A stretch of 50,305 nt of DNA from a virus (Duplodnaviria > Caudoviricetes): IMG/VR virus record IMGVR_UViG_3300033388_003879, positions 1-50,305 of that record; one strand, given 5' to 3'. Of this stretch, positions 4,192 to 28,312 are shown piece by piece. The notes under the pieces were generated by a model. It was not told where the DNA came from and searched no databases. It was given only the letters and a program-made list of their open reading frames with translations. The first letter of the stretch is position 1. Each line of letters begins with the position of its first letter. The position numbers and the translations under genes were made by a program.

Positions 4192-4892
4192 TTATTCTTC
4201 CACTCTTCATATATTTCTGATACACCGAGAGCGTATTCATCCTCACAGTATTTTACAAAGATTTCTATCTGTTTTTCTAGTTCTTCGATGCGGGATAGTT
4301 GATCATGGTTTATGTTGTATTGATCTTTAAATCCTTCAAGTTGGTATTTAAATACTGAAATCTCTGATTGTGCTTTTTGGGTGGCTGATTTATAACCTGA
4401 AAAATACCCTTCTCTATAGCTTGGATGATTTTTCGAGTGGTCAATAGTCGTGAAGGTTACCTTTTCCTTTTCAAAAGCCTCTCTTATCTCATCCTTTTTC
4501 TCTTCTGGCTCCATAATCAAGCTTGTTATTTCATCTTGCGATAGCTCCACCCCATCATCACCATAATTAACTCTATCATGAATTATCTCATCACTGGTAG
4601 ACTGCTGTACATCAAGTCTTTTCTGTACTGATTTTGATATTATTTCTGGCTCTTTGCCTGCTTCGAATCCATGGATATAAGCACCCACTACTTTGTTGGT
4701 TTTTGAAATAACTTCTTTACGTTTCTTTGGCTCTTTGCCTGTTCCGTTGCATTTAGGGCAAACTGATCTGACTACACAAAGGTTATGCTCCGATCCTTCA
4801 CAATCACCATCTATGAAGACGGGACAATTCCTGCAATCTGGATCTTTCTGAAAATAATCTTCTCCATAACACATTTTACACTTTTCACCCAT
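4188..4892 (-). CDS. hypothetical protein with DnaJ-like Zn motifs and coiled coil
   Basis: CKMCYG...CPKCNGTG. Confidence 0.65.
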   Translation of the reverse strand: MGEKCKMCYGEDYFQKDPDCRNCPVFIDGDCEGSEHNLCVVRSVCPKCNGTGKEPKKRKEVISKTNKVVGAYIHGFEAGKEPEIISKSVQKRLDVQQSTSDEIIHDRVNYGDDGVELSQDEITSLIMEPEEKKDEIREAFEKEKVTFTTIDHSKNHPSYREGYFSGYKSATQKAQSEISVFKYQLEGFKDQYNINHDQLSRIEELEKQIEIFVKYCEDEYALGVSEIYEEWKNK

Positions 4893-6057: not shown

Positions 6058-6234
6058 GTGGTCATAACAAAAGAAGAATTAGAAAAAATCTACAAAGAAA
6101 ATAGTAATGATGAAGCATCTAAGATTTTAGGTATCTCAATTCCTACTATGCTTAAATATCTTGAAAATAATGGTATTCCGTTAAAAGGTGCCGGAGCGCA
6201 TAACAATACTAAGAAAATTCAGGTGGTAGATTAA
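6058..6234 (+). CDS. small HTH (Cro/Fis-like) protein
   Basis: Not in ORF track; AAGGAG RBS, GTG start, SNDEASKILGISIPTMLKYLENNGI. Confidence 0.75.
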   Translation: MVITKEELEKIYKENSNDEASKILGISIPTMLKYLENNGIPLKGAGAHNNTKKIQVVD

Positions 6235-6731
6235 TGGACTACAAAGAACAATACCTTCATCCTAAATGGCAGAAAAAGCGACTTGAAATAATGAAGAGAG
6301 ACGGGTTTAAGTGTGTTAGTTGCGGTGATGGTGAATCGAAATTAAATGTACATCATAATTATTACATAAACAGTAAAGATGTTTGGGATTATCCACAAAC
6401 TGCCCTAATAACAGTTTGTGACATATGCCATAAAAATATTCACAAATCCATGGAAGACGAAGAACTAAACAAAAATATACCAATCTCAAGAATAGCTTTT
6501 TTAACTAGAACTACGATGGAAAAGTGTTTTTTCGACTACCAATTTTACATGGGTTTCATTTGTTCTGATTTAATAAACAGAAGTACAAGTAATGGCATTG
6601 TGTGCAACTTAGATGTTATAGACATTATAGAAAACGCAATACTAAACGGATTGAATGGAGATCAGTTTAGTACCTACTGGAACGCCTGTGAAGATGCAGG
6701 ATCAATCTTAAATATAAATACAGAGGTATAG
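6234..6731 (+). CDS. HNH endonuclease
   Basis: WQKKRLEIMKRDGFKCVSCG...LNVHH...LITVCDICH. Confidence 0.85.
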   Translation: MDYKEQYLHPKWQKKRLEIMKRDGFKCVSCGDGESKLNVHHNYYINSKDVWDYPQTALITVCDICHKNIHKSMEDEELNKNIPISRIAFLTRTTMEKCFFDYQFYMGFICSDLINRSTSNGIVCNLDVIDIIENAILNGLNGDQFSTYWNACEDAGSILNINTEV

Positions 6732-7784: not shown

Positions 7785-8321
7785 ATGAGAGAGAAGATAG
7801 AAGCGTGTTTGATTGATACTGATTACCCGATGTGTATTGAATCAGAAGTCAGAAAACTAGAATCAGATTATAAAGAGCTCCAAAACAAATACAGAAAAGA
7901 TATTTTGAATAACGATATAATCCATAGGTCTGACATAGCAGAACTTGAAAACAAAATAGACGACGTGATACTACAAGAAAATCAATCCCTTAAAGAACAA
8001 ATAAAAATATTAGCTCATATCACATACACATACAATCCAGATGTAGATATAAGTAAATATCTGCATAATCTATCAACAGAAGATTACCAGTTGTTTCTTG
8101 AAAATAATAAAACAGAAGATTATGAAAAACTTGAAAACAAACTAAAGATTGCTGTTGAGGCTTTGGGAAACGTAAAGGAATCGTGGGAATATCTGAAAGG
8201 TGGTAGGAGCTATTCATCTACAGAAATAGATAATTGGTTGTCTTATCCAATGAAACAATCAATCGATAAAGCTCGTGAAGCTATCTTGCTAATCTCCAAC
8301 ATACCGGAGGAATCAACATGA
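7785..8321 (+). CDS. coiled-coil hypothetical protein
   Basis: AAGAGAGGTG RBS. Confidence 0.7.
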   Translation: MREKIEACLIDTDYPMCIESEVRKLESDYKELQNKYRKDILNNDIIHRSDIAELENKIDDVILQENQSLKEQIKILAHITYTYNPDVDISKYLHNLSTEDYQLFLENNKTEDYEKLENKLKIAVEALGNVKESWEYLKGGRSYSSTEIDNWLSYPMKQSIDKAREAILLISNIPEEST

Positions 8322-8475
8322 AATCAAAATGGCAGAAAAAACAGATACATAACTGGAAGCATCATAAACCAATGACTAAAAAAGAAGCTACTCAGATCCA
8401 GACAATGATCTGTATGATTTTATTCGTAGTGATAATAGTAGGGCTTATCGTTAAAGAAATTATTGTTAAGGAGGT

Positions 8476-8697
8476 TTGGTTTTGAGTGTGGCAATGATAA
8501 TTTTCCTCGTATTACTCGGGATTATTTTGCTTTCTTGTTTAATTACTTATTACATTGATTTCGACGTAAAAGAAAGACAAGCTGATGCAGAAACTAAAAA
8601 AGAGTTTTTGCTAGGCATGATCCCTTTTTATTGGTGGTATGTAGATCTATTGGAATGGATTGAAAGCTTAAAAGAAAGATGGAGAAAGTTAAAATGA
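8476..8697 (+). CDS. small membrane protein
   Basis: Hydrophobic N-terminus; AGGAGG RBS; exact start uncertain. Confidence 0.6.
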   Translation: MVLSVAMIIFLVLLGIILLSCLITYYIDFDVKERQADAETKKEFLLGMIPFYWWYVDLLEWIESLKERWRKLK

Positions 8698-8866
8698 GCC
8701 AGCGCCGGTCATCCAAGAAGGTAAAAGCCATAGATAAGTTTATCATGGAAAATTACCCGATACATGGAGCTAAATTATACTCTCAGAGCTTCACATTGCT
8801 TCTCTAGCGTATTTTATACTAAAAGATGTCAATTATATGGTTGATGATAGTACAGGCCGATTATGA
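8694..8866 (+). pseudogene. probably frameshifted or internally deleted small gene
   Basis: Frame 0 reads MSQRR...YPIHGAK; -1 frame opens right after TAA at 8771 and ends at TGA 8866. Confidence 0.35.
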
Positions 8867-8871
8867 GGCTA

Positions 8872-9039
8872 TTGCTATTATCTGGAATATCTGTTATTAT
8901 GTTGTTATCAGTTGGTACCTGATAACAACCAGATATAATCCAATATAGATTATGAAGCCTGTTAAGGCATTGAGAGAATATTTAGTTTTATCTGGGACTA
9001 TTTTATTCGTACCAACTCGATGTTTTAACAGGCTTTTTT
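8872..9039 (+). ncRNA. a/b antisense-attenuator RNA element 1 with its promoter
   Basis: TTGCTA-17-TATTAT; loop TTGGTAC complements GTACCAA; CCAGATA complements TATCTGG; 20-bp terminator stem plus U-tract. Confidence 0.7.
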
Positions 9040-9051
9040 ATTGGAGTTTTT

Positions 9052-9621
9052 ATGAATAGATCTGATTTAGTGTCAAAATATAACTTTTTGTACAAGACAA
9101 TTATTCCATACGATAAAAGATATCATGATACTTGTTTTTACTGCGGAGAAGTTCAAGATGTTATTGATCATTATCCAGCTCTAGCTACTACCGAAAAGAT
9201 GTATGGTCTGTATTATGGAGATTATTTGCTTATACCGTCCTGTAGATCTTGTAATTCATTTTTATCAGACTCTTATCAAAACAACATTCATGACAGAATA
9301 AAATACGTAAAGAAATTGATTTTCAAGAAAAATAATAGAATAATAATCAATGGCTTTAAATGGTTTCCAGAAGAAATTGAGGAATTAGAAAAAGGCCATT
9401 TAATGGATATCGTTTTGAAAATGAAATATAAATCCACAGTCATGATAGATAGGCTGACATACAAGCCTTATGATTTTTATATCAAAAAAGAAAAAGAAAA
9501 GATTCTATATGCAATATCAGAAGACGTAAATAAGGATTATTACTATCTCATAGAATCGCTAGAAGAAGAGAAAGAAGATTTACAAAAATTGTTTAGAGAA
9601 AATTTATATTTGAAAGTTTAA
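9052..9621 (+). CDS. HNH-type endonuclease
   Basis: CFYCG...IDHYP...CRSCN. Confidence 0.75.
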   Translation: MNRSDLVSKYNFLYKTIIPYDKRYHDTCFYCGEVQDVIDHYPALATTEKMYGLYYGDYLLIPSCRSCNSFLSDSYQNNIHDRIKYVKKLIFKKNNRIIINGFKWFPEEIEELEKGHLMDIVLKMKYKSTVMIDRLTYKPYDFYIKKEKEKILYAISEDVNKDYYYLIESLEEEKEDLQKLFRENLYLKV

Positions 9622-9670
9622 CATTCCAAACTTCACGCTAAAACATTTATATTATTTGTATATTATCTTC

Positions 9671-9699
9671 TTGACATACTTTAATAGATGTATTAGATT
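9671..9699 (+). promoter_or_regulatory. early-type promoter with ACATACT motif
   Basis: TTGACA-17-TAGATT, then AAGAGGTGA RBS. Confidence 0.75.
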
Positions 9700-9729
9700 A
9701 GAGATAGATTGAAATTAAGAGGTGATGAG

Positions 9730-9888
9730 ATGACAAAAACTTATAATAATTTAAATGATATTGAAAAGAACATAATTAGAGAATATAGAAGCTGGTGTAA
9801 ATCTGATTGTGATTTAAACTATAAAATAGCCATGGCTACACAATGGAGAGAAAGAGCAGTTTCCGAAAATATCCAGCATTTATTATAA
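9730..9888 (+). CDS. 52-aa hypothetical protein
   Basis: Not in ORF track; GAGGTG RBS directly after promoter. Confidence 0.65.
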   Translation: MTKTYNNLNDIEKNIIREYRSWCKSDCDLNYKIAMATQWRERAVSENIQHLL

Positions 9889-9954
9889 TAATCATCTTAC
9901 AGCCGTCTTCATCACTGGAGGCGGTCAGTAATTTTATTATTAGAGAGGTATGAA

Positions 9955-10140
9955 ATGAGAACATTTGAAGGTCAACAGATTGTTAGGTATCATAAAAACT
10001 TATCACCGGACGTTTTGCCATTAACAATAGATTGTGAAAATGAAAAAGAATTAGTTGCAGAACAGAAACGAATTAAAAAATGTAGAATCGATCTTGATGG
10101 TGCAATTATGGTAACGTTTAATATGAGCGAAAGATTATGA
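9955..10140 (+). CDS. hypothetical protein
   Basis: GAGAGG RBS. Confidence 0.65.
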   Translation: MRTFEGQQIVRYHKNLSPDVLPLTIDCENEKELVAEQKRIKKCRIDLDGAIMVTFNMSERL

Positions 10141-10415
10141 GCAAATTAAATCCTGAAGAATTCCTGAAAAAATTAGCTGATAAGTTGCAGCATGACAGAG
10201 GTGATATTACAACTGTCATTGAAGATTATTTAGACGATGAACATGAAACCATTGATGATTTATTCGATGAGCGTTACGTCTCCGCTAAAATTCCTGGAGA
10301 AAATAAAATCGATGTGGAATATGATACTTTTACCGGTACATTGCATTATCGAAAATTATCCGAAGAATGGAATGAGTGTGAAGATTATGAAACCAGAAAA
10401 GATGAGGTGATTTGA
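10137..10415 (+). CDS. acidic hypothetical protein
   Basis: ATGA overlap. Confidence 0.65.
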   Translation: MSKLNPEEFLKKLADKLQHDRGDITTVIEDYLDDEHETIDDLFDERYVSAKIPGENKIDVEYDTFTGTLHYRKLSEEWNECEDYETRKDEVI

Positions 10416-10681
10416 TGAAGATAGGTGATTTTGTAAAAGTTAGAAAAATGAGGAAGTCTCATAAGTGGAATAATTCTTTTGGTGTTTTATTCACAGGATT
10501 AATAGGAAAAATAGAAGCAGACCATGAGGCTTATGATGGAAGGTGTTTATTTGTATGCTTTGAAGGTGAAGTAGGAACAGGTCAATCAAGCCATTTTTAT
10601 GAAAAAGAATTAAAGCTTGAATTTGAAAATCCTATTTGTAAAAATATGAAGCCGTTAAAAAATCCAGAGGCCATAAAATGA
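10412..10681 (+). CDS. hypothetical SH3/KOW-like protein
   Basis: MKIGDFVKV N-terminal motif. Confidence 0.6.
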   Translation: MMKIGDFVKVRKMRKSHKWNNSFGVLFTGLIGKIEADHEAYDGRCLFVCFEGEVGTGQSSHFYEKELKLEFENPICKNMKPLKNPEAIK

Positions 10682-11055
10682 AAACAATATCAGTACGCCA
10701 GCCATACGCGACTTTAATTTGCGCCGGAGTAAAACCAATTGAGAATCGTTCCTGGAGAACTAAATTCCGAGGTAGGATTTATATCCATGCTCCTGCTAAA
10801 AGTGAAGTTGGAGATATTGTTTTTTCTGATGATCAATTGTTTGACATGAAGGAAAATAATTTTAGTTATGATGGTCTTGAGACTTCCGCTATTATTGGAT
10901 ATGTAGAAATTGTTGATTGTATTCGTGATAGTAAATCAATTTGGGCTGAATATGATTTTTGGCACTGGGTTTTAAAAGATCCTATTTTATTTGATGATCC
11001 TATTTTGAATGTAAAAGGAAAACTAAGTTTATGGGATTTCCAGATTCCGGCCTGA
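10678..11055 (+). CDS. ASCH domain protein
   Basis: ISVRQPYA...GVKPIENRSW...RGRIYIHA...KGKLSLW. Confidence 0.9.
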   Translation: MKTISVRQPYATLICAGVKPIENRSWRTKFRGRIYIHAPAKSEVGDIVFSDDQLFDMKENNFSYDGLETSAIIGYVEIVDCIRDSKSIWAEYDFWHWVLKDPILFDDPILNVKGKLSLWDFQIPA

Positions 11056-11105
11056 TCTTGAAATAATTTTACTTCAGGATTATTATTAAAGTGTGGAGAC
11101 GAACA

Positions 11106-11750
11106 GTGCCTAAGAAAAATGAACCAGATAAATTAAACCCAAAGCAGAAAGCTTTCTGCCATGCTCTTATAGAACTTGACTGGAATCAAACACAGGCAGC
11201 TATTAAAGCCGGATATGCTAAAAAATCAGCTCATGTGACTGCTTCAAGATTGCTAAAAGATGATAAGGTGATCAAATATCTCGATGAGTGCGTTGATAAG
11301 AGCCTAGGAGCGATGAAGTCACAAATCAGGCATAAAGTCTTATCTGAGTTAATACCGATAGCTACACAGAACAGCACTGAGATTGTGAATGTACTTACTA
11401 AGACATACGAGAAGCCTATTTTAAATAGTGAAGGTGAACCAACCGGAGAGACTGAAACTAAAGAATATCAAACAGTAGAAATAGCTGATACTACAAACCT
11501 TACACCTCAACAGCAAAAGACAATTTCCAGTATTAAACAGGATTCAAAGGGCTGTATTGAAATAAAGTTCCATGATAAAAAATCTGCTCTTGAATTGTTG
11601 GGGAAGCATGGTGGCTTGTGGAATGATACAAATAAGGTTGAACTTTCTGGAAAGCTTGAAACTGAGAATACAAATATAAATGTAGATGTTTCTAATTTAA
11701 CTGAAAGTGAAGCAAAAGAATTATTCTTTCAGACTATTAATAAAGATTGA
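11106..11750 (+). CDS. terS: terminase small subunit
   Basis: KQKAFC...NQTQAAIKAGY...ASRLL; EIKFHDKKSALELLGKH; GGAG RBS before GTG 11106. Confidence 0.9.
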   Translation: MPKKNEPDKLNPKQKAFCHALIELDWNQTQAAIKAGYAKKSAHVTASRLLKDDKVIKYLDECVDKSLGAMKSQIRHKVLSELIPIATQNSTEIVNVLTKTYEKPILNSEGEPTGETETKEYQTVEIADTTNLTPQQQKTISSIKQDSKGCIEIKFHDKKSALELLGKHGGLWNDTNKVELSGKLETENTNINVDVSNLTESEAKELFFQTINKD

Positions 11751-11924
11751 AATTATTTGTAATAAATGTTATCCTTAATTAAGGTCGTTGGCCTACTTCT
11801 TTGACGGGGAGTTTTATACATAAGTTCAGGGTTAAGAAGGCTGCTTCAGCTTCCTGCCCTATATAGTTTGCCTGAACTGACTATCTACGGGACGTCACAG
11901 GAAACTGAAGGAGTCTTTTTTTTT
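11747..11924 (+). ncRNA. a/b antisense-attenuator RNA element 2 with its promoter
   Basis: TTGAAA-17-TATCCT; TGACG/CGTCA and AGTTCAGG/CCTGAACT pairings; terminator 3' arm contains the RBS. Confidence 0.7.
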
Positions 11925-12617
11925 ATGCATAAAATAGATATTGGAGATGTATTTGGTGATCTTGTTGTTTTGGATGTTTTTTCAAATACTAAAAAATGCG
12001 GGAATAAATATAGAGCTGCTAAATGTCGGTGCGTAGTGTGTGGAGCTACTGGCCATACTGACGTATGGAAACTTGTTAAGAATAAAGTAAAATCGTGTAA
12101 AGGATACAAAAGAAGAGTAGAAGATTTTACTAATTATTCTGTAGCATATACTCATAACCTGGAAAAAGTTTTTGTGTCCAAAGAAGATAAAGATATTCTT
12201 GAAGTTTCTTCTCTACATACTGATGAAGCTGGATATTTTATTACAAAACTAAATAGCAAGAACAAGAGAATCCATTTAATTATTTCTGAAAGGATTTACG
12301 GTGAGTTTGAGATAATCGATCATAAAGATCGAGATAAAAGCAATTGCCGTAGAAATAACCTTAGAAGATCTACAAGAAAGCAAAATAATAGGAACATGCC
12401 ACTAAAAAAAATGAAAACCAAAACAAGTAAATATAAGGGAGTTTATTATTCCAAAGAAACAATAAACAAGTGGCAATCCTCAATAACAGTGGATGGTGAA
12501 AAAATATTATTAGGTAGGTATGATTCAGAAATGCAAGCGGCAATAGTTTACGATGAATATGCTTTGATTTATCATAAAGAATTTGCATGCACTAATACTA
12601 TGCTGGGTCTTTTATGA
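11925..12617 (+). CDS. HNH homing endonuclease with AP2 DNA-binding domain
   Basis: IDHKDRDKSNCRRNNLR; SKYKGVY...LLGRYDSEMQAAIVYD; likely start ATG 11925. Confidence 0.9.
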   Translation: MHKIDIGDVFGDLVVLDVFSNTKKCGNKYRAAKCRCVVCGATGHTDVWKLVKNKVKSCKGYKRRVEDFTNYSVAYTHNLEKVFVSKEDKDILEVSSLHTDEAGYFITKLNSKNKRIHLIISERIYGEFEIIDHKDRDKSNCRRNNLRRSTRKQNNRNMPLKKMKTKTSKYKGVYYSKETINKWQSSITVDGEKILLGRYDSEMQAAIVYDEYALIYHKEFACTNTMLGLL

Positions 12618-14025
12618 AAATCCCATGGACTGAAAGGGCAAAAATAATAACAGATCCAGAACAAATAAAAAAATATTACAACGCTTACCATATTCAATCA
12701 GTGGAGTCTGTTATAGATTTTATTGACCGATTCTGTATAACTGTTGATCCAAGAAAAACAGATAATAGAGAATTACCTTTTGAACTTTTTGAAAAACAAA
12801 TTTCCTATATTCGATGGCTATGGAAGCAATATACGGATAGAAATGATGGTGTTGTAGATAAGTGTCGTGGGATTGGTATGTCATGGATGAATGCTGCTTT
12901 CTCTACCTATCTTTTACTCTTTCAAAAGCAGGTTACTATCTCTATGTATACCTATAAGGCCGATGAATGTCACGAAAAGGATAATCTTGATACCCTTATT
13001 GAGACTCTCCTGGTCGTGGAGGCCGTAGCTCTATTTATTTCTTAGATGAGTGTGCATTTTATCCCAGAGCTGATTCAATAGAAGCCGCCGTTTCCCGTAA
13101 TGCCGATTGTAAAATATGGGGTAGTACTCACCACGGCACAAATACTTTATTTTACAGAAAATGCACTTCTGGGATAAATAGCGTTTTCACTTTCGACTGG
13201 TGGGAATTGGGGGAAATGTATACTCAAGAGTGGTATGATTCAGAAAAAGAAAAAGCAGAGGCAGAGGGAACCTTGCATATTTTTCAGCAGGAAGTAGAGC
13301 GAAATGCAGCTGCCTCCCTTGAATCTGTTTGCTGTCCTCCTGAATGGGTAGCATCTTCCAAGAGAAATGAAACTATTCTGAATGGGCTTAAAATAGCGGC
13401 TCTTGATCCAGCTAATGAAGGCGGTGACACTCATGGGTTTGTTGTAGTTGATGGAAATCAAATTATACATGCCGATGAATCAGGGGAAGGTGACCCAGGA
13501 GAAGCTACAGATAAATACTTTTGGCGTGCCGTCAAAATGGAATGTGACGAATTTCGTTATGATCCAATAGGGATTGGTGCCGCAGTTTCTTCACGGCTGA
13601 AGGAAATTTTAAAACATCTAGCTGCTGATGATCCAGGCAAGAAGATAAAAATAAGGCCATGGAATGCCGGTGCTGCTGTGATTAGGCCAAATGAAAAAGA
13701 TTATGCAGAGACTAAAAACGAAAAGTTTTTTAAGAATAGTAAATCTCAAGCGTGGTGGAAAGTCAGGCATGAATTTTTACAGACATATAGAGCCGGTAAT
13801 GGTAAAGAATATAAGCCTGATGAAATTATTTCAGTTGGTGAAATAACAAGGAAAATAGAAAAGTTATTCCTTGAACTATCACAACCTCAATATATTATGT
13901 CGGTAGATGGGAAATTATTGATTGACAAGAAACCGAAAGGAACAAAATCACCAAATATCGCAGATGCTTATATAATGTGTCGAGCTGAGGTTAAACAAGG
14001 CTTCCAACCATGGACTGTCATATAA
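12614..14025 (+). pseudogene. terL: terminase large subunit, split by apparent deletion and frameshift near 13002
   Basis: Walker-A-like DKCRGIGMSW in first frame; -1 frame from 13003 gives GRGGRSSIYFLDE (Walker B) and nuclease motifs ALDPA...SPNIADA. Confidence 0.85.
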
Positions 14026-14029
14026 TCTC

Positions 14030-14059
14030 TTGACATACTACGTAATATAGATATAATAT
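14030..14059 (+). promoter_or_regulatory. early-type promoter with ACATACT motif
   Basis: TTGACA-16-TATAAT; AGATTAAATTAAGAGGTG leader. Confidence 0.75.
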
Positions 14060-14088
14060 AGGTAAAGATTAAATTAAGAGGTGAGAAG

Positions 14089-14259
14089 ATGAAGAAAACA
14101 ATATTAACAATGGGGATTATCTACTTTGTAGTAGGCGTTGTAGATTTATATCTGGATTATGATAAATGGACTATCCTGTGGCTTTCTAGCGGAATATTTT
14201 TTACTTTGATCGGATTAGGTATTTGGGCTATAGGCGAAATAAGGAAGATATCAAAATGA
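14089..14259 (+). CDS. 56-aa two-TM membrane protein
   Basis: Not in ORF track; MKKTILTMGIIYFVVGVV...WLSSGIFFTLIGLGIWAI. Confidence 0.7.
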   Translation: MKKTILTMGIIYFVVGVVDLYLDYDKWTILWLSSGIFFTLIGLGIWAIGEIRKISK

Positions 14260-25541: not shown

Positions 25542-25950
25542 TAATCCGAGTGCTAATTATACTCAAGAAATAATGATTAGAGAATTAGAAAAACATAAAG
25601 ATAATATACGGCTCGCTTTAAAAGTTCATGGTAAAAAAGTCACTGTGAAATTAAAAAGCACTATTAAAACAGCCAGAGGAACCGGTACTAAATACCCGAA
25701 TCTACCCAATAGATCATCTGCACCGGGAGAAATTCCCGTTAGTCAGTCCGGTAAATTAGAACGCGGTTTCGGATATAAATCGAGAGTTAATGAATTGCTG
25801 GTATTTAATAAAGCCACGAGCAGCGGTGCGCCATATCCTTTATTTTTGAATGAAGGTACAAGTAAAATGAAACCACGGCAATATTTTGATAATACAATTG
25901 AATCTATGAATATGCTGTTATATGTCGATTTACAGAATATATTTCATTGA
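25534..25950 (+). CDS. HK97 gp10-like tail/neck component
   Basis: SAPGEIP..SGKL; YPLFLNEGTSKMKPRQY; GGAGG RBS before GTG 25534. Confidence 0.8.
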   Translation: MANNPSANYTQEIMIRELEKHKDNIRLALKVHGKKVTVKLKSTIKTARGTGTKYPNLPNRSSAPGEIPVSQSGKLERGFGYKSRVNELLVFNKATSSGAPYPLFLNEGTSKMKPRQYFDNTIESMNMLLYVDLQNIFH

Positions 25951-25980
25951 TAAAATTTTGGATGTGGATTATATTTAAAT

Positions 25981-26148
25981 AGTCCTAGTCGAGGCTAGGA
26001 CAGCACGGCTGGAGAGCTTAGACCGAAAGGTGGATACTTGAAAAATGGGTGATACGCTACCCTGAGTGCGAGATTGAAAAACCTATTTTTAGGTTAATCC
26101 GATTTGATCACGGATTATTTAAAGCTTCTCAGACGAGAGGCTTTTTTA
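25981..26148 (+). ncRNA. structured ncRNA of unknown class
   Basis: TTGATA(25947)-17-TATATT promoter, five hairpins, terminator, no ORF. Confidence 0.65.
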
Positions 26149-26177
26149 TTCTAATCATAAAATAATTAAATATTCTC

Positions 26178-26206
26178 TTGACATACCATGATATAAAGAT
26201 TAGATT
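26178..26206 (+). promoter_or_regulatory. early-type promoter with ACATACCAT
   Basis: TTGACA-17-TAGATT. Confidence 0.7.
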
Positions 26207-26223
26207 TAGGTAGATTAAAGAGC

Positions 26224-26385
26224 TTGATAATGTAGATTATCCATATTATATTTAACGTATCTGAACTAACCACTCAGGTGCATAGAACATGGAATTTTTT
26301 AAAAGCATTGAGCGCTTTTTATGTCAGATCTTCCATGTGTCTGGCTCCCTATGTGGTGTAGGGGAAGCGCTGAGTGCTTTTCTTA
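26224..26385 (+). ncRNA. a/b antisense-attenuator RNA element 3 (orphan) with its promoter
   Basis: TTGATA-17-TATATT; ACCAC/GTGGT and ACATGGAA/TTCCATGT pairings; long hairpin ending TTTTCTT. Confidence 0.65.
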
Positions 26386-26537
26386 TTGTTCAGCTCGTGT
26401 TTTGTAACGGTTTGACGTAATAGTAGTCTATCCACCGTAGTACAGGTAAAGGTGAGTAGGAGCACTGCAAGTAGAGATAAATGTATCTTGACAGGTTCGG
26501 TATAGGTGGGTTTTAAAAAAAAAAGAGAGGATAGAAT

Positions 26538-26762
26538 ATGAAAGGAGGGAGAGGTAACAAGAGAATGAGGAGAGTGTGCCGAAAGAAAAGGACATTCCAC
26601 TCTTTGCAAGATGCTTATGATTCATCTTTTGCCTTAAATAGAAGAGGCTTTATGTTGAAGCCTTATGCTTGTGGGAACCATTGGCATTTATGTAAAAGAT
26701 CAAAAGAAGAACGATTGATGATAATATTTGATAAAATCGAAAATGAAAGGAAGAATAGATGA
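26538..26762 (+). CDS. small basic protein with Y-x-C...HWHL motif
   Basis: AAGAGAGG RBS. Confidence 0.7.
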   Translation: MKGGRGNKRMRRVCRKKRTFHSLQDAYDSSFALNRRGFMLKPYACGNHWHLCKRSKEERLMIIFDKIENERKNR

Positions 26763-26995
26763 AAATATTTACAAAAAAGAATTTTATGAGATTTATGGGA
26801 ATAGCATTTATGTATATCCCAGTATGGTCGGCTGTTAAGTTGTATCAAATATATAGCGGTACTGTTTCCTTTTCTGGACTAGACATGATAATGTTGGTTG
26901 GGTACATAGGGGCAAGCTTTTTTATAAAGGCTGTAGATCTTATTATTACCGGAAATTCTGGCACATTGACAATTGAGTTAAACAAACGTAGTTAA
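26759..26995 (+). CDS. small membrane protein (2 TM)
   Basis: ATGA overlap, hydrophobic segments. Confidence 0.65.
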   Translation: MKIFTKKNFMRFMGIAFMYIPVWSAVKLYQIYSGTVSFSGLDMIMLVGYIGASFFIKAVDLIITGNSGTLTIELNKRS

Positions 26996-27000
26996 TATAG

Positions 27001-27028
27001 AGCTTCTCTTCGGAGAGGCTTTTTTTTT
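27001..27028 (+). terminator. intrinsic terminator
   Basis: AGCTTCTC-TTCG-GAGAGGCT plus T-run. Confidence 0.85.
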
Positions 27029-27038
27029 AGGAGGCATT

Positions 27039-27188
27039 ATGAATAATTTAGAAATATATAATCTACTGGAAATTATTAAATCTAAAACTAAGGAAATAAA
27101 AGCTAATCCTGAAGTCTCTAGAAAACTATTGATAAACGCCGGAATATATAATACTGATGGAACTCTGACTGATAATTATTCCATATAA
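27039..27188 (+). CDS. 49-aa hypothetical protein
   Basis: Not in ORF track; AGGAGG RBS; SRKLLINAGIYNTDGTLT. Confidence 0.65.
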   Translation: MNNLEIYNLLEIIKSKTKEIKANPEVSRKLLINAGIYNTDGTLTDNYSI

Positions 27189-27232
27189 CTGAGAGGCTTT
27201 TTTTTTATTCCATCCTGATCTATAATTACAGC

Positions 27233-28312
27233 ATGGCAACATTCTACAGTCCAGTAGCAATTCAAGAGCACTTAATGAAATATCTCCCACGTCTAACCTC
27301 CCGATTTTCAGACAACGCAGCTGTCAGTGCTGAAATAGTCGCCGGTGATCCTCAAGTATTAAGAATTACAGATAATAGCCACGGCTTAGATGTTGACGAT
27401 CAAATAATTTTAGTTGACGGTTTAATTGATAATGTCATAACAAATGTAGTTGATAATAACGATGGATCATTCAGATTTACAACTGCTGAAGAACATGATT
27501 TAACTCAGGATTATACAACTGAAATTGAACTAGCCGGTTTTACAGATAGTCAATTTAACGGAAAATTCCCACTACTGGCAGTTCCCAGTCGTAATTTATT
27601 CGAAATAGAATTACCTTCCCTTCCAGCTTTAACCGGAGATCCGGTATTGAGAGAAGACAGAGAAATCGGAATAAACGGAAATTTTAAAATTACCACTATA
27701 ATAGACACAGATATTTATGAAATAGAGTTAACCGGAAAACCTTTCTTTACTCCTCAGACAATACCGATTTTAATAAGAGCAAAAGATTTTAATATTGATA
27801 TTGTCGCAAATGCGGAAAGGGCAACTGATAAATATCAGACAGATGGAGCCGGTAAAAACTGGATCTTTATTATAATGGGAGTTTCCAATATTTCAAAAGA
27901 TCAGGATATTACATCAGATGCAATTCAACAGAACGGGGCAGGAACTGAATCAAGGCCATTGAATATGAATAACTTTTCCTTAAATGTATATATCGATACA
28001 ACAAAAGATATCGGTGGAGCAGAGGCAATACAACTGGCATATGAGGAAATTTATCAGATATTACTTGCTGTGTGTTCTGGAATCAGGTTTGATGATTTCG
28101 GTGAATCAAGATATCTAACAACACTGATAAATCATGAGCTTGATTTATATAAGAAATCCTTTTATTCCCATATGTACACATTTGAATATAATTTTGAAAT
28201 TACTCAGGAAGAACAGTTCTTAACTAAATTTATTGAGTCCAGAAGATTTAATGATTCTGATTTAAGCTTTTCAGAACAACAGGACGGCTCAACTCAGGAT
28301 TTAGACGGTTAA
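27233..28312 (+). CDS. probable tail terminator/completion protein with inserted beta domains
   Basis: Position before sheath; HGL..D and FNG.F motifs. Confidence 0.55.
   Translation: MATFYSPVAIQEHLMKYLPRLTSRFSDNAAVSAEIVAGDPQVLRITDNSHGLDVDDQIILVDGLIDNVITNVVDNNDGSFRFTTAEEHDLTQDYTTEIELAGFTDSQFNGKFPLLAVPSRNLFEIELPSLPALTGDPVLREDREIGINGNFKITTIIDTDIYEIELTGKPFFTPQTIPILIRAKDFNIDIVANAERATDKYQTDGAGKNWIFIIMGVSNISKDQDITSDAIQQNGAGTESRPLNMNNFSLNVYIDTTKDIGGAEAIQLAYEEIYQILLAVCSGIRFDDFGESRYLTTLINHELDLYKKSFYSHMYTFEYNFEITQEEQFLTKFIESRRFNDSDLSFSEQQDGSTQDLDG

Follow-up and report, generated by a model that had tools for sequence, protein, structure and literature searches.

Could a short RNA leader, acting without any protein, limit the output of a phage nuclease gene? 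Homing-type nucleases behave selfishly and may do harm to the phage that carries them; terminators, hairpins covering the ribosome site, and a single protein autorepressor are the controls known to act on them. The question was raised here by element 1, which lies within the 244 nt that separate small ORFs of the early region from a 189-aa ORF (9052-9621). The window, namely the whole stretch of DNA that was analyzed, is the complete IMG/VR virus record IMGVR_UViG_3300033388_003879 (50,305 bp, 35% G+C) and represents a tailed phage, with genes for a sheath, a tape measure, and a baseplate. A preliminary description of the locus had proposed a self-antisense attenuator gating an HNH nuclease, and had named a promoter, a 5' hairpin, two pairs of complementary sites, and a terminator as its parts.

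Inspection of the sequence confirmed all of these parts, which lie on the plus strand, and refined several of them. The predicted promoter P1 (8872-8900) consists of TTGCTA (8872-77), a 17-nt spacer, and TATTAT (8895-8900), and a TG at 8892-93 makes it an extended -10 promoter as judged by consensus match. It is followed by hairpin 1 (8901-8929), which proved to be an 11-bp perfect inverted repeat (8901-11/8919-29) with a 7-nt loop, site a (TTGGTAC, 8912-18); the repeat occurs only once in the window, and 0/100 shuffles matched it. Directly 3' of the inverted repeat lies leader site b (CCAGATA, 8929-35), and then a small hairpin, H2 (ATAATC/GATTAT, 8935-8953). The stem of the terminator was verified as 20 pairs (8955-74/9016-35), of which 17 are Watson-Crick and three G-T; its 5' arm holds a mini hairpin of its own (GCCT-GTTA-AGGC), and its 3' arm leads into a T-run (T6 at 9034-39, then ATT, to 9041). 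In the minimum-energy fold of element 1 (-52.4 kcal/mol, z -7.85, equaled by 0/200 shuffles), b' (TATCTGG, 8989-95) indeed occupies the apex of the interior hairpin, and a' (GTACCAA, 9009-15), which is complementary to loop a, forms a 7-nt 3' bulge. The a:a' complementarity was found to be longer than claimed, extending over 9 nt (8910-18/9009-17), 2 nt of which reach into the terminator arm. The ribosome site of the 189-aa ORF (GGAG, 9043-46; ATG, 9052) begins 8 nt beyond the stem and takes part only in weak outer pairing in the predicted fold, so that the Shine-Dalgarno sequence is not enclosed in a stem as it is in element 2 of the same window (see below). Two such complementary 7-mers between leader and interior were found in 4.7% of 2000 shuffles, and the significance of the complementarity, judged within the window alone, is modest.

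Relatives of element 1 were sought with a DNA pattern taken from both ends of the terminator stem; an exact stem was required, and the family is thus of at least seven copies. In viral contigs, the stem-end pattern found L015, and a looser pattern found L025 and L026 (10 loci in total, of which three belong to the family, two share the stem only, and five are unrelated). In metagenome contigs, the pattern found L017 and L020 among five loci, one of which was L015 again and two of which were unrelated. A covariance model built from four relatives (model R1) then revealed a second copy in the L015 contig at 80 bits; this copy lay out of register in the MAFFT alignment and was counted by script. 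All six copies beyond the window are in uncultured phage contigs. The seven fall into two subtypes, one comprising the window and L020, and the other L015, L017, L025, L026, and the second copy of the L015 contig. The layout common to the seven copies consists of an extended -10 (a variant in L025), a leader, a long-stem terminator of about 20 bp, a T-run, and an ORF 14-25 nt farther on. The stem followed by a T-run, i.e., the feature of a predicted intrinsic terminator, is present in element 1 and throughout the seven copies, with the lower stem nearly the same in all of them. In addition, the L015 subtype has an extra side hairpin capped by GCAA, GAAA, or GTAA, which we take to be GNRA-type loops.

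The reach of model R1 itself was limited. It scored the window at 26.3 bits and L020 at 27.2 bits, no better than the unrelated L019 (25.6 bits), and its matches to these two thus reflect the stem only. The preliminary description had envisaged a covariance model built from three elements of the window; model R1, derived from the relatives instead, did detect one further copy, and neither of the other two window elements was matched by it at E ≤ 10. Furthermore, none of five cultured-phage loci with homologous HNH genes gave a match to R1 (5/5 without), and the leader is therefore not a general companion of such nucleases. The pattern matches L018, L019, L022, L023, L024 (= L028), and L029 were judged unrelated, and L027 (= L030) was rejected as a family member, with the stem as the only part in common and a TerL-like ORF following. 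The latter locus (L027, 1195-1362, minus strand), in a 43.6-kb phage with terminal repeats, is an observation in its own right, in that a terminator with the same lower stem directly precedes the TerL-like ORF; R1 gave it only 22 bits. Another separate observation was made upstream of a homologous HNH gene in Aeromonas phage 62AhydR11PP (L042, 505-597), where an extended -10 (TGaTATAAT) is followed by a long-range 7-bp stem without a T-run and without an R1 match, and which may be a different kind of leader.

Searches by other routes were mostly negative. No relative was obtained from viral contigs through the proteins of 9052-9621 or 7785-8321 or through the HNH_3 protein, and none from metagenome contigs through neighboring proteins; the neighboring-protein search of genomes gave one weak match (L009), and the protein database gave two relatives only, at 60% identity and both on short contigs. 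Element 1 has no homologue in L002-L004, the relatives by small terminase (TerS), and neither element 1 nor the L015 copy gave a blastn match when compared with GenBank phages, E. coli genomes, and plasmids.

The pairing of b with b' proved to be kept across the family. In 7/7 copies, the apical loop of the hairpin nested inside the terminator is perfectly complementary to 6-7 nt of its own leader, and five different sequences are used for this purpose: CCAGATA/TATCTGG, ATGCAA/TTGCAT, CTGATAC/GTATCAG, CTGACC/GGTCAG, and CTCGCAC/GTGCGAG. Against leaders of the other types, the best complement was 5 nt or shorter, the exception being the L015/L017 loop, which matches 6 nt of the window leader. 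The p values from loop shuffling ranged from 0.012 to 0.093 per copy. Between the window and L020, b is identical at 2/8 and b' at 1/7 positions, whereas the terminator arms are identical at 40/40 (20/20 in the 5' arm); the complementarity is nonetheless kept in each, and 3/5 counted b:b' pairs are changed on both sides. A similar distribution was seen for the two copies in one contig, in which the apical hairpin (10/23 identical) and the leader hairpin (16/29) differ far more than the other parts of the terminator (29/33 and 15/19). In the alignment of four L015-type sequences, 98.8% of 170 cells were paired, as compared with at most 49% in slid controls, and 6/43 pairs were changed on both sides, one of them within the loop-loop helix; this helix also shows a matched one-base deletion on both sides, adjoining the doubly changed pair. 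Shuffles of this alignment never reached the paired share or the covariation score (0/500 each), and 22/500 reached the count of doubly changed pairs.

These figures derive from seven copies in two subtypes with five pairing codes, and because several of the seven are close relatives, the shuffle controls overstate their independence. The statistics for b:b' are thus indicative and not proof, and the pattern would be hard to explain without a functional b:b' contact. On this comparative basis, the data support element 1 as a real RNA-level feature in which the complementarity between the leader and the terminator interior appears to be under selection. The preliminary description had named a lack of covariation in homologues as the result that would speak against it; for b:b', covariation was found across all seven copies. 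Its own argument, that the complementarity covaries among three elements of the window, did not hold, since the three are unrelated in sequence and the positions compared are not homologous.

The same cannot be said of the a:a' contact. It is conserved between the window and L020 (a' is 7/7 identical) without compensatory change, one of its pairs is lost in L020, and it has no counterpart in the L015 subtype; for these reasons, the contact is unproven, and the covariation expected of a:a' in homologues was not seen between these two copies. Hairpin 1 gave a mixed picture, with 2/11 pairs changed on both sides and one pair broken in L020. A transcript from P1 would start near 8907, about 7 nt after the -10, and would keep only the inner 5 bp or so of the 11-bp hairpin; it is also this inner portion that L020 preserves best. 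The extended -10 (TGnTATnAT), assessed by consensus match only, stands at the aligned place in 6/7 copies of the family, and L025 has TGaTATAAC there, plus a TGcTATAAT farther upstream.

We also examined the genes that follow the leader. An HNH gene had been placed at 9052, directly after element 1; an ORF does follow directly, and its HNH identity is a lead only. Namely, the 189-aa protein has a CxxC...DH...CxxCN motif (Cys4 plus DH) and weak Atlas leads to HNH clusters, and it matched nothing in Pfam, PHROG, or NCBIfam; its profile aligned with an HNH alignment at a probability of 0.3%, a sequence search of the PDB gave nothing below E 0.19, and its AlphaFold model was unusable (mean pLDDT 41.6). 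Among the ORFs behind the other copies, those of L015 and L020 contain HNH_3 above the Pfam cut-off, those of L026 and of the second copy in the L015 contig match PF01844 just below the cut-off, and those of L017 and L025 are 46-57% identical to these four. The L026 protein matched 104 GenBank phage records, and among the matches listed, most were annotated as HNH or endonuclease VII and some as hypothetical protein. As a separate observation, a 165-aa ORF elsewhere in the window (6234-6731) matched PF01844 (HNH) weakly, at 9.9 bits and under the cut-off.

The genes upstream of the cassettes vary and include those for small terminase, NrdB (nrdB), integrase, and a DUF932 protein, as would be expected of free-standing homing-type cassettes. 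In L020, a leader of the window type lies directly after the small-terminase gene and before an HNH_3 gene, a place taken in the window by element 2. Over about 165 nt, from near the -10 box to the start codon, the leaders of the window and L020 share about 90% DNA identity, whereas the TerS and HNH proteins of the two are only 40% and 32% identical, respectively; the leader module thus appears to move on its own.

According to the preliminary description, the layout of element 1 recurs at 11747 and 26224 with different a/b sequences. What recurs is the architecture with one loop-leader contact and not a common sequence. Element 2 (11747-11925, plus strand) begins with TTGAAA-17-TG-n-TATCCT and carries the leader site AGTTCAGG (11823-30) and the apical-loop site CCTGAACT (11871-78) within a compound terminator (11834-11920); GGAG (11910-13) lies inside the 3' arm, and the likely start codon (ATG, 11925) opens an HNH_3 gene as assigned by Pfam. 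Element 3 (26178-26384, plus strand) has a consensus promoter (26178-26206), the leader site ACATGGAA (26287-94), and the inner-loop site TTCCATGT (26331-38) within a compound terminator (26303-26384); only small unassigned ORFs, and no HNH gene, lie behind it. The terminators of both are compound and long-stemmed, whereas the ordinary terminators of the window are short, and in each, one inner hairpin loop is complementary to the leader over 8 nt, seven of which lie inside the loop and one next to it (loop-shuffle p about 0.012). A second contact of the a type was looked for in element 2 and not found. On the evidence of their sequences, elements 2 and 3 are best described as architectural analogues of element 1, not copies of it.

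Several features near these two elements deserve mention in their own right. The consensus promoter of element 3 is one instance of a promoter-ribosome site cassette repeated at 9671, 14030, 23801 (+), 23744 (-), and 26178 of the window; the layout is tcTTGACAtac, a -10 (TATAAT or TTAGAT), about 6 nt, TAGATT, then AAGAGGTGA and ATG, and the TAGATT box, being -10-like, might be a pause or recognition site. Behind element 3, a 74-aa very basic ORF (26538-26762) contains a Y-x-C-x4-H-W-H-L stretch and has no Pfam match at E ≤ 1. In L003, a relative with 66% identity, the gap after the small-terminase gene (4652-4741) is likewise structured and has GGGGAG..TTTTA in common with the element 2 leader (window 11751-11830); a C5-methylase-like gene comes next, instead of an HNH gene. 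The large terminase gene of the window (12614-14025) is split: 12614-13045 corresponds to residues 1-131 and 13207-14025 to residues 239-514 of a relative's TerL, the stretch in between continues in a different frame, and no counterpart exists for about 57 residues. Possible explanations are a misassembly, a deletion, or the phage being defective.

Comparison with catalogued RNAs gave no identification. No family of Rfam 15 matched the window at the gathering score, 8400-14200 at E ≤ 10, or the six relatives at E ≤ 1, and 25900-27400 at E ≤ 10 gave nothing beyond terminator-like chance matches; a group I intron or HEARO-type RNA around the HNH genes was rejected for want of an Rfam match. The preliminary description had likened the element to the P4 CI and P1 C4 RNAs, which act through two target sites. 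There was no match to C4 antisense RNA (RF01695) or c4-a1b1, and a search of 9036-9200 for a second a/b target pair found no b-like site and a single a-like site with one mismatch (9087, inside the ORF). Element 1 is thus not a known member of the c4/CI group, having neither a model match nor a second target pair at the ribosome site. A full-text literature search, judged by titles and abstract openings, returned no description of such a leader.

Partial likenesses to described systems are nevertheless evident. In phage P4, according to the part of the source available, an RNA derived from the leader of the operon that it controls pairs with complementary sites in transcripts of the same family and governs premature termination (PMC4825925). 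The P4 CI RNA (seqA/seqC) and the c4 RNA of P1/P7 share with element 1 the two-site a/b logic, and the feedback idea developed below resembles the P4 CI RNA; however, the P4 sites described in that part lie both upstream and downstream (seqA, seqC), whereas those of element 1 (a, b) lie upstream only (PMC4825925). The P4/P1 systems serve prophage immunity, whereas element 1 belongs to nuclease cassettes of lytic-looking phages and has no known processing. The zipper-type attenuator of pLS20 is also a leader attenuator with an upstream complement: as far as the available part of its report describes, a sequence upstream is complementary to the terminator region and produces an antiterminator fold (PMC13401043). 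There, however, the complementarity extends into a long stem and consumes the terminator arms, whereas the partners in element 1 are an interior loop and a bulge, and the arms stay free (PMC13401043).

The order of promoter, terminator, and gene is that of an attenuator, and element 1 was interpreted as such on this ground. Structure predictions for the nascent transcript, cut before the 3' arm, are in line with an active part for the pairing. Closure through a:a' was predicted in both the window and L020, and b:b' was present in the minimum-energy structure of L020 and in the centroid of the window; in these predicted folds, the 5' arm lies in an enclosed loop, partly as the GCCT-GTTA-AGGC mini hairpin. 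For the full-length RNAs of both, the predicted fold is the terminator, and the minimum-energy folds of both transcripts include H2, for which there is no covariation. The nascent folds as modeled thus fit an antiterminator-like role of the pairing.

We are inclined, at somewhat better than an even guess, to regard element 1 as a member of an uncatalogued family of promoter-proximal leader RNAs of phage cassettes with HNH-type, homing-endonuclease-like genes, acting as an attenuator in which the pairing delays the terminator, with the feedback part less certain. Judging from the sequence comparisons, element 1 is probably a real, uncatalogued switch that limits nuclease production. In the mechanism proposed here, b:b' would form on the nascent RNA ahead of the 3' arm, joined in the window subtype by a:a' (hairpin loop to bulge). 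The 5' arm would thereby be trapped within a closed loop, and the two-turn terminator stem would zip up more slowly next to the T-run. Because stem closure would be delayed by the pairing, a fraction of polymerases would read into the nuclease gene, and the pairing would, in the best reading, be the antiterminator. The pairing crosses the terminator stem, and their combination would be a pseudoknot built about a helix of two turns. Since the pairing leaves the terminator arms free, both may coexist in such a pseudoknot, in which case the pairing could stabilize the terminator instead of opposing it.

For a switch, the pairing would have to be modulated, and the simplest candidate for the modulator is the leader RNA itself. 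In this less certain step, the finished leader RNA, folded as the terminator hairpin, would leave b and b' accessible and would thereby attach to these sites in newly made transcripts. Such binding in trans would restore termination and constitute a protein-free negative feedback, with b/b' as its specificity code. Feedback in trans by accumulated leader RNA is plausible from the sequences, with the two copies of one genome having different codes. Selection against cross-talk fits the observation that codes differ within a genome and that change is concentrated in b/b', which compensated drift could also have produced.

The most serious competitor of this attenuator is a constant throttle or insulator, in which the terminator would block most transcription into the nuclease gene, both from outside and from its own promoter, and the pairing would only compact or stabilize the terminated RNA or the fold of the terminator, with neither a switch nor an action in trans. 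It would account for the strong stem and T-run of all seven copies and for the terminator arms left untouched by the pairing. It also has precedents, as terminators and hairpins of great stability beside the ribosome site keep the expression of homing-endonuclease genes of the T4 family low, one such hairpin being that of seg43(25) just upstream of its ribosome site, as far as the available part of the source relates (PMC2988022). Element 1 resembles these controls of the T4 family (I-TevI/II/III, segB, mobE, seg43(25)), with a covarying long-range contact added, and element 2 has its GGAG inside the terminator arm in a comparable manner; the cases as given in that part are described without a covarying long-range loop contact, and the ribosome site of element 1 stands outside the stem (PMC2988022). 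A plain terminator, however, needs neither a 41-nt interior nor a leader contact maintained over 6-7 nt, the divergence concentrated in both interacting sites suggests specificity over a merely structural function, and the pairing is already present in the predicted nascent folds, at a point where the 3' arm has yet to be made. We therefore consider a throttle of this kind unlikely, although it keeps some weight. Improbable in our estimate is that the terminated RNA works mainly between genomes, as an incompatibility-type regulator that would silence cassettes of the same code in co-infecting phages, or that would target another RNA. The codes, which differ between both copies of a single contig and among the three elements of the window, as well as the mobility of the module (leader about 90% identical vs 40% for TerS and 32% for HNH), would suit such a function; both partners, however, are always in the same RNA, which points to a contact in cis first, and neither a second a/b site near the ribosome site nor any other target was identified.

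The guanidine-IV riboswitch has conserved loop letters and, as a ligand sensor, offers a different model, in which a small molecule would stabilize the kissing loop. The topology is the same as that of element 1: in the mepA motif, a 5' element makes a loop-loop contact with the hairpin of the terminator, and the kissing loop has been proposed, without an atomic structure, to aid terminator dissociation and read-through, at least in the part of the report available (PMC11611296). That pairing needs guanidine, whereas the loops of the family of element 1 show plain, fully Watson-Crick complementarity over 6-7 nt in five unrelated sequences with no conserved pocket apparent. The gene context, moreover, is one of nucleases and not of transport or metabolism, and no Rfam match was obtained at E ≤ 10, all of which makes a ligand-sensing function very improbable. 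No more credible is a feature of the DNA, with the 11-bp inverted repeat as an operator overlapping a second promoter and the complementarities as by-products. A candidate second promoter does exist inside element 1 (TTGGTA, 8912-17; 16 nt; TATAAT, 8934-39), scores 10/12, and is followed by TAGATT as in the repeated promoter cassettes of the window, and the inverted repeat is unique in the window. In L020, however, this -10 reads AAATAA while the upstream extended -10 stays, and the second-promoter reading was dropped for this reason. Furthermore, the exact inverted-repeat pattern had no match in viral contigs, and compensatory changes between sites about 60 nt apart are not explained by DNA binding.

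The attenuator with feedback can be carried one step further. The leader may be a self-antisense, code-bearing autoregulator that acts in trans on nascent transcripts with a matching code, within the same genome and in co-infecting phages, with b/b' resembling plasmid incompatibility determinants under diversifying selection, and with the module of about 165 nt swapped among unrelated nuclease genes; we put this forward tentatively, as possible but doubtful. A portable, protein-free leader that sets or self-limits nuclease output, if true, would explain how the cassette can land in so many surroundings, here after terminase, nrdB, integrase, and DUF932 genes. Sites that change and yet remain matched, as b and b' appear to do, would moreover be natural orthogonal RNA-RNA switches, relevant to RNA regulation and to synthetic biology.
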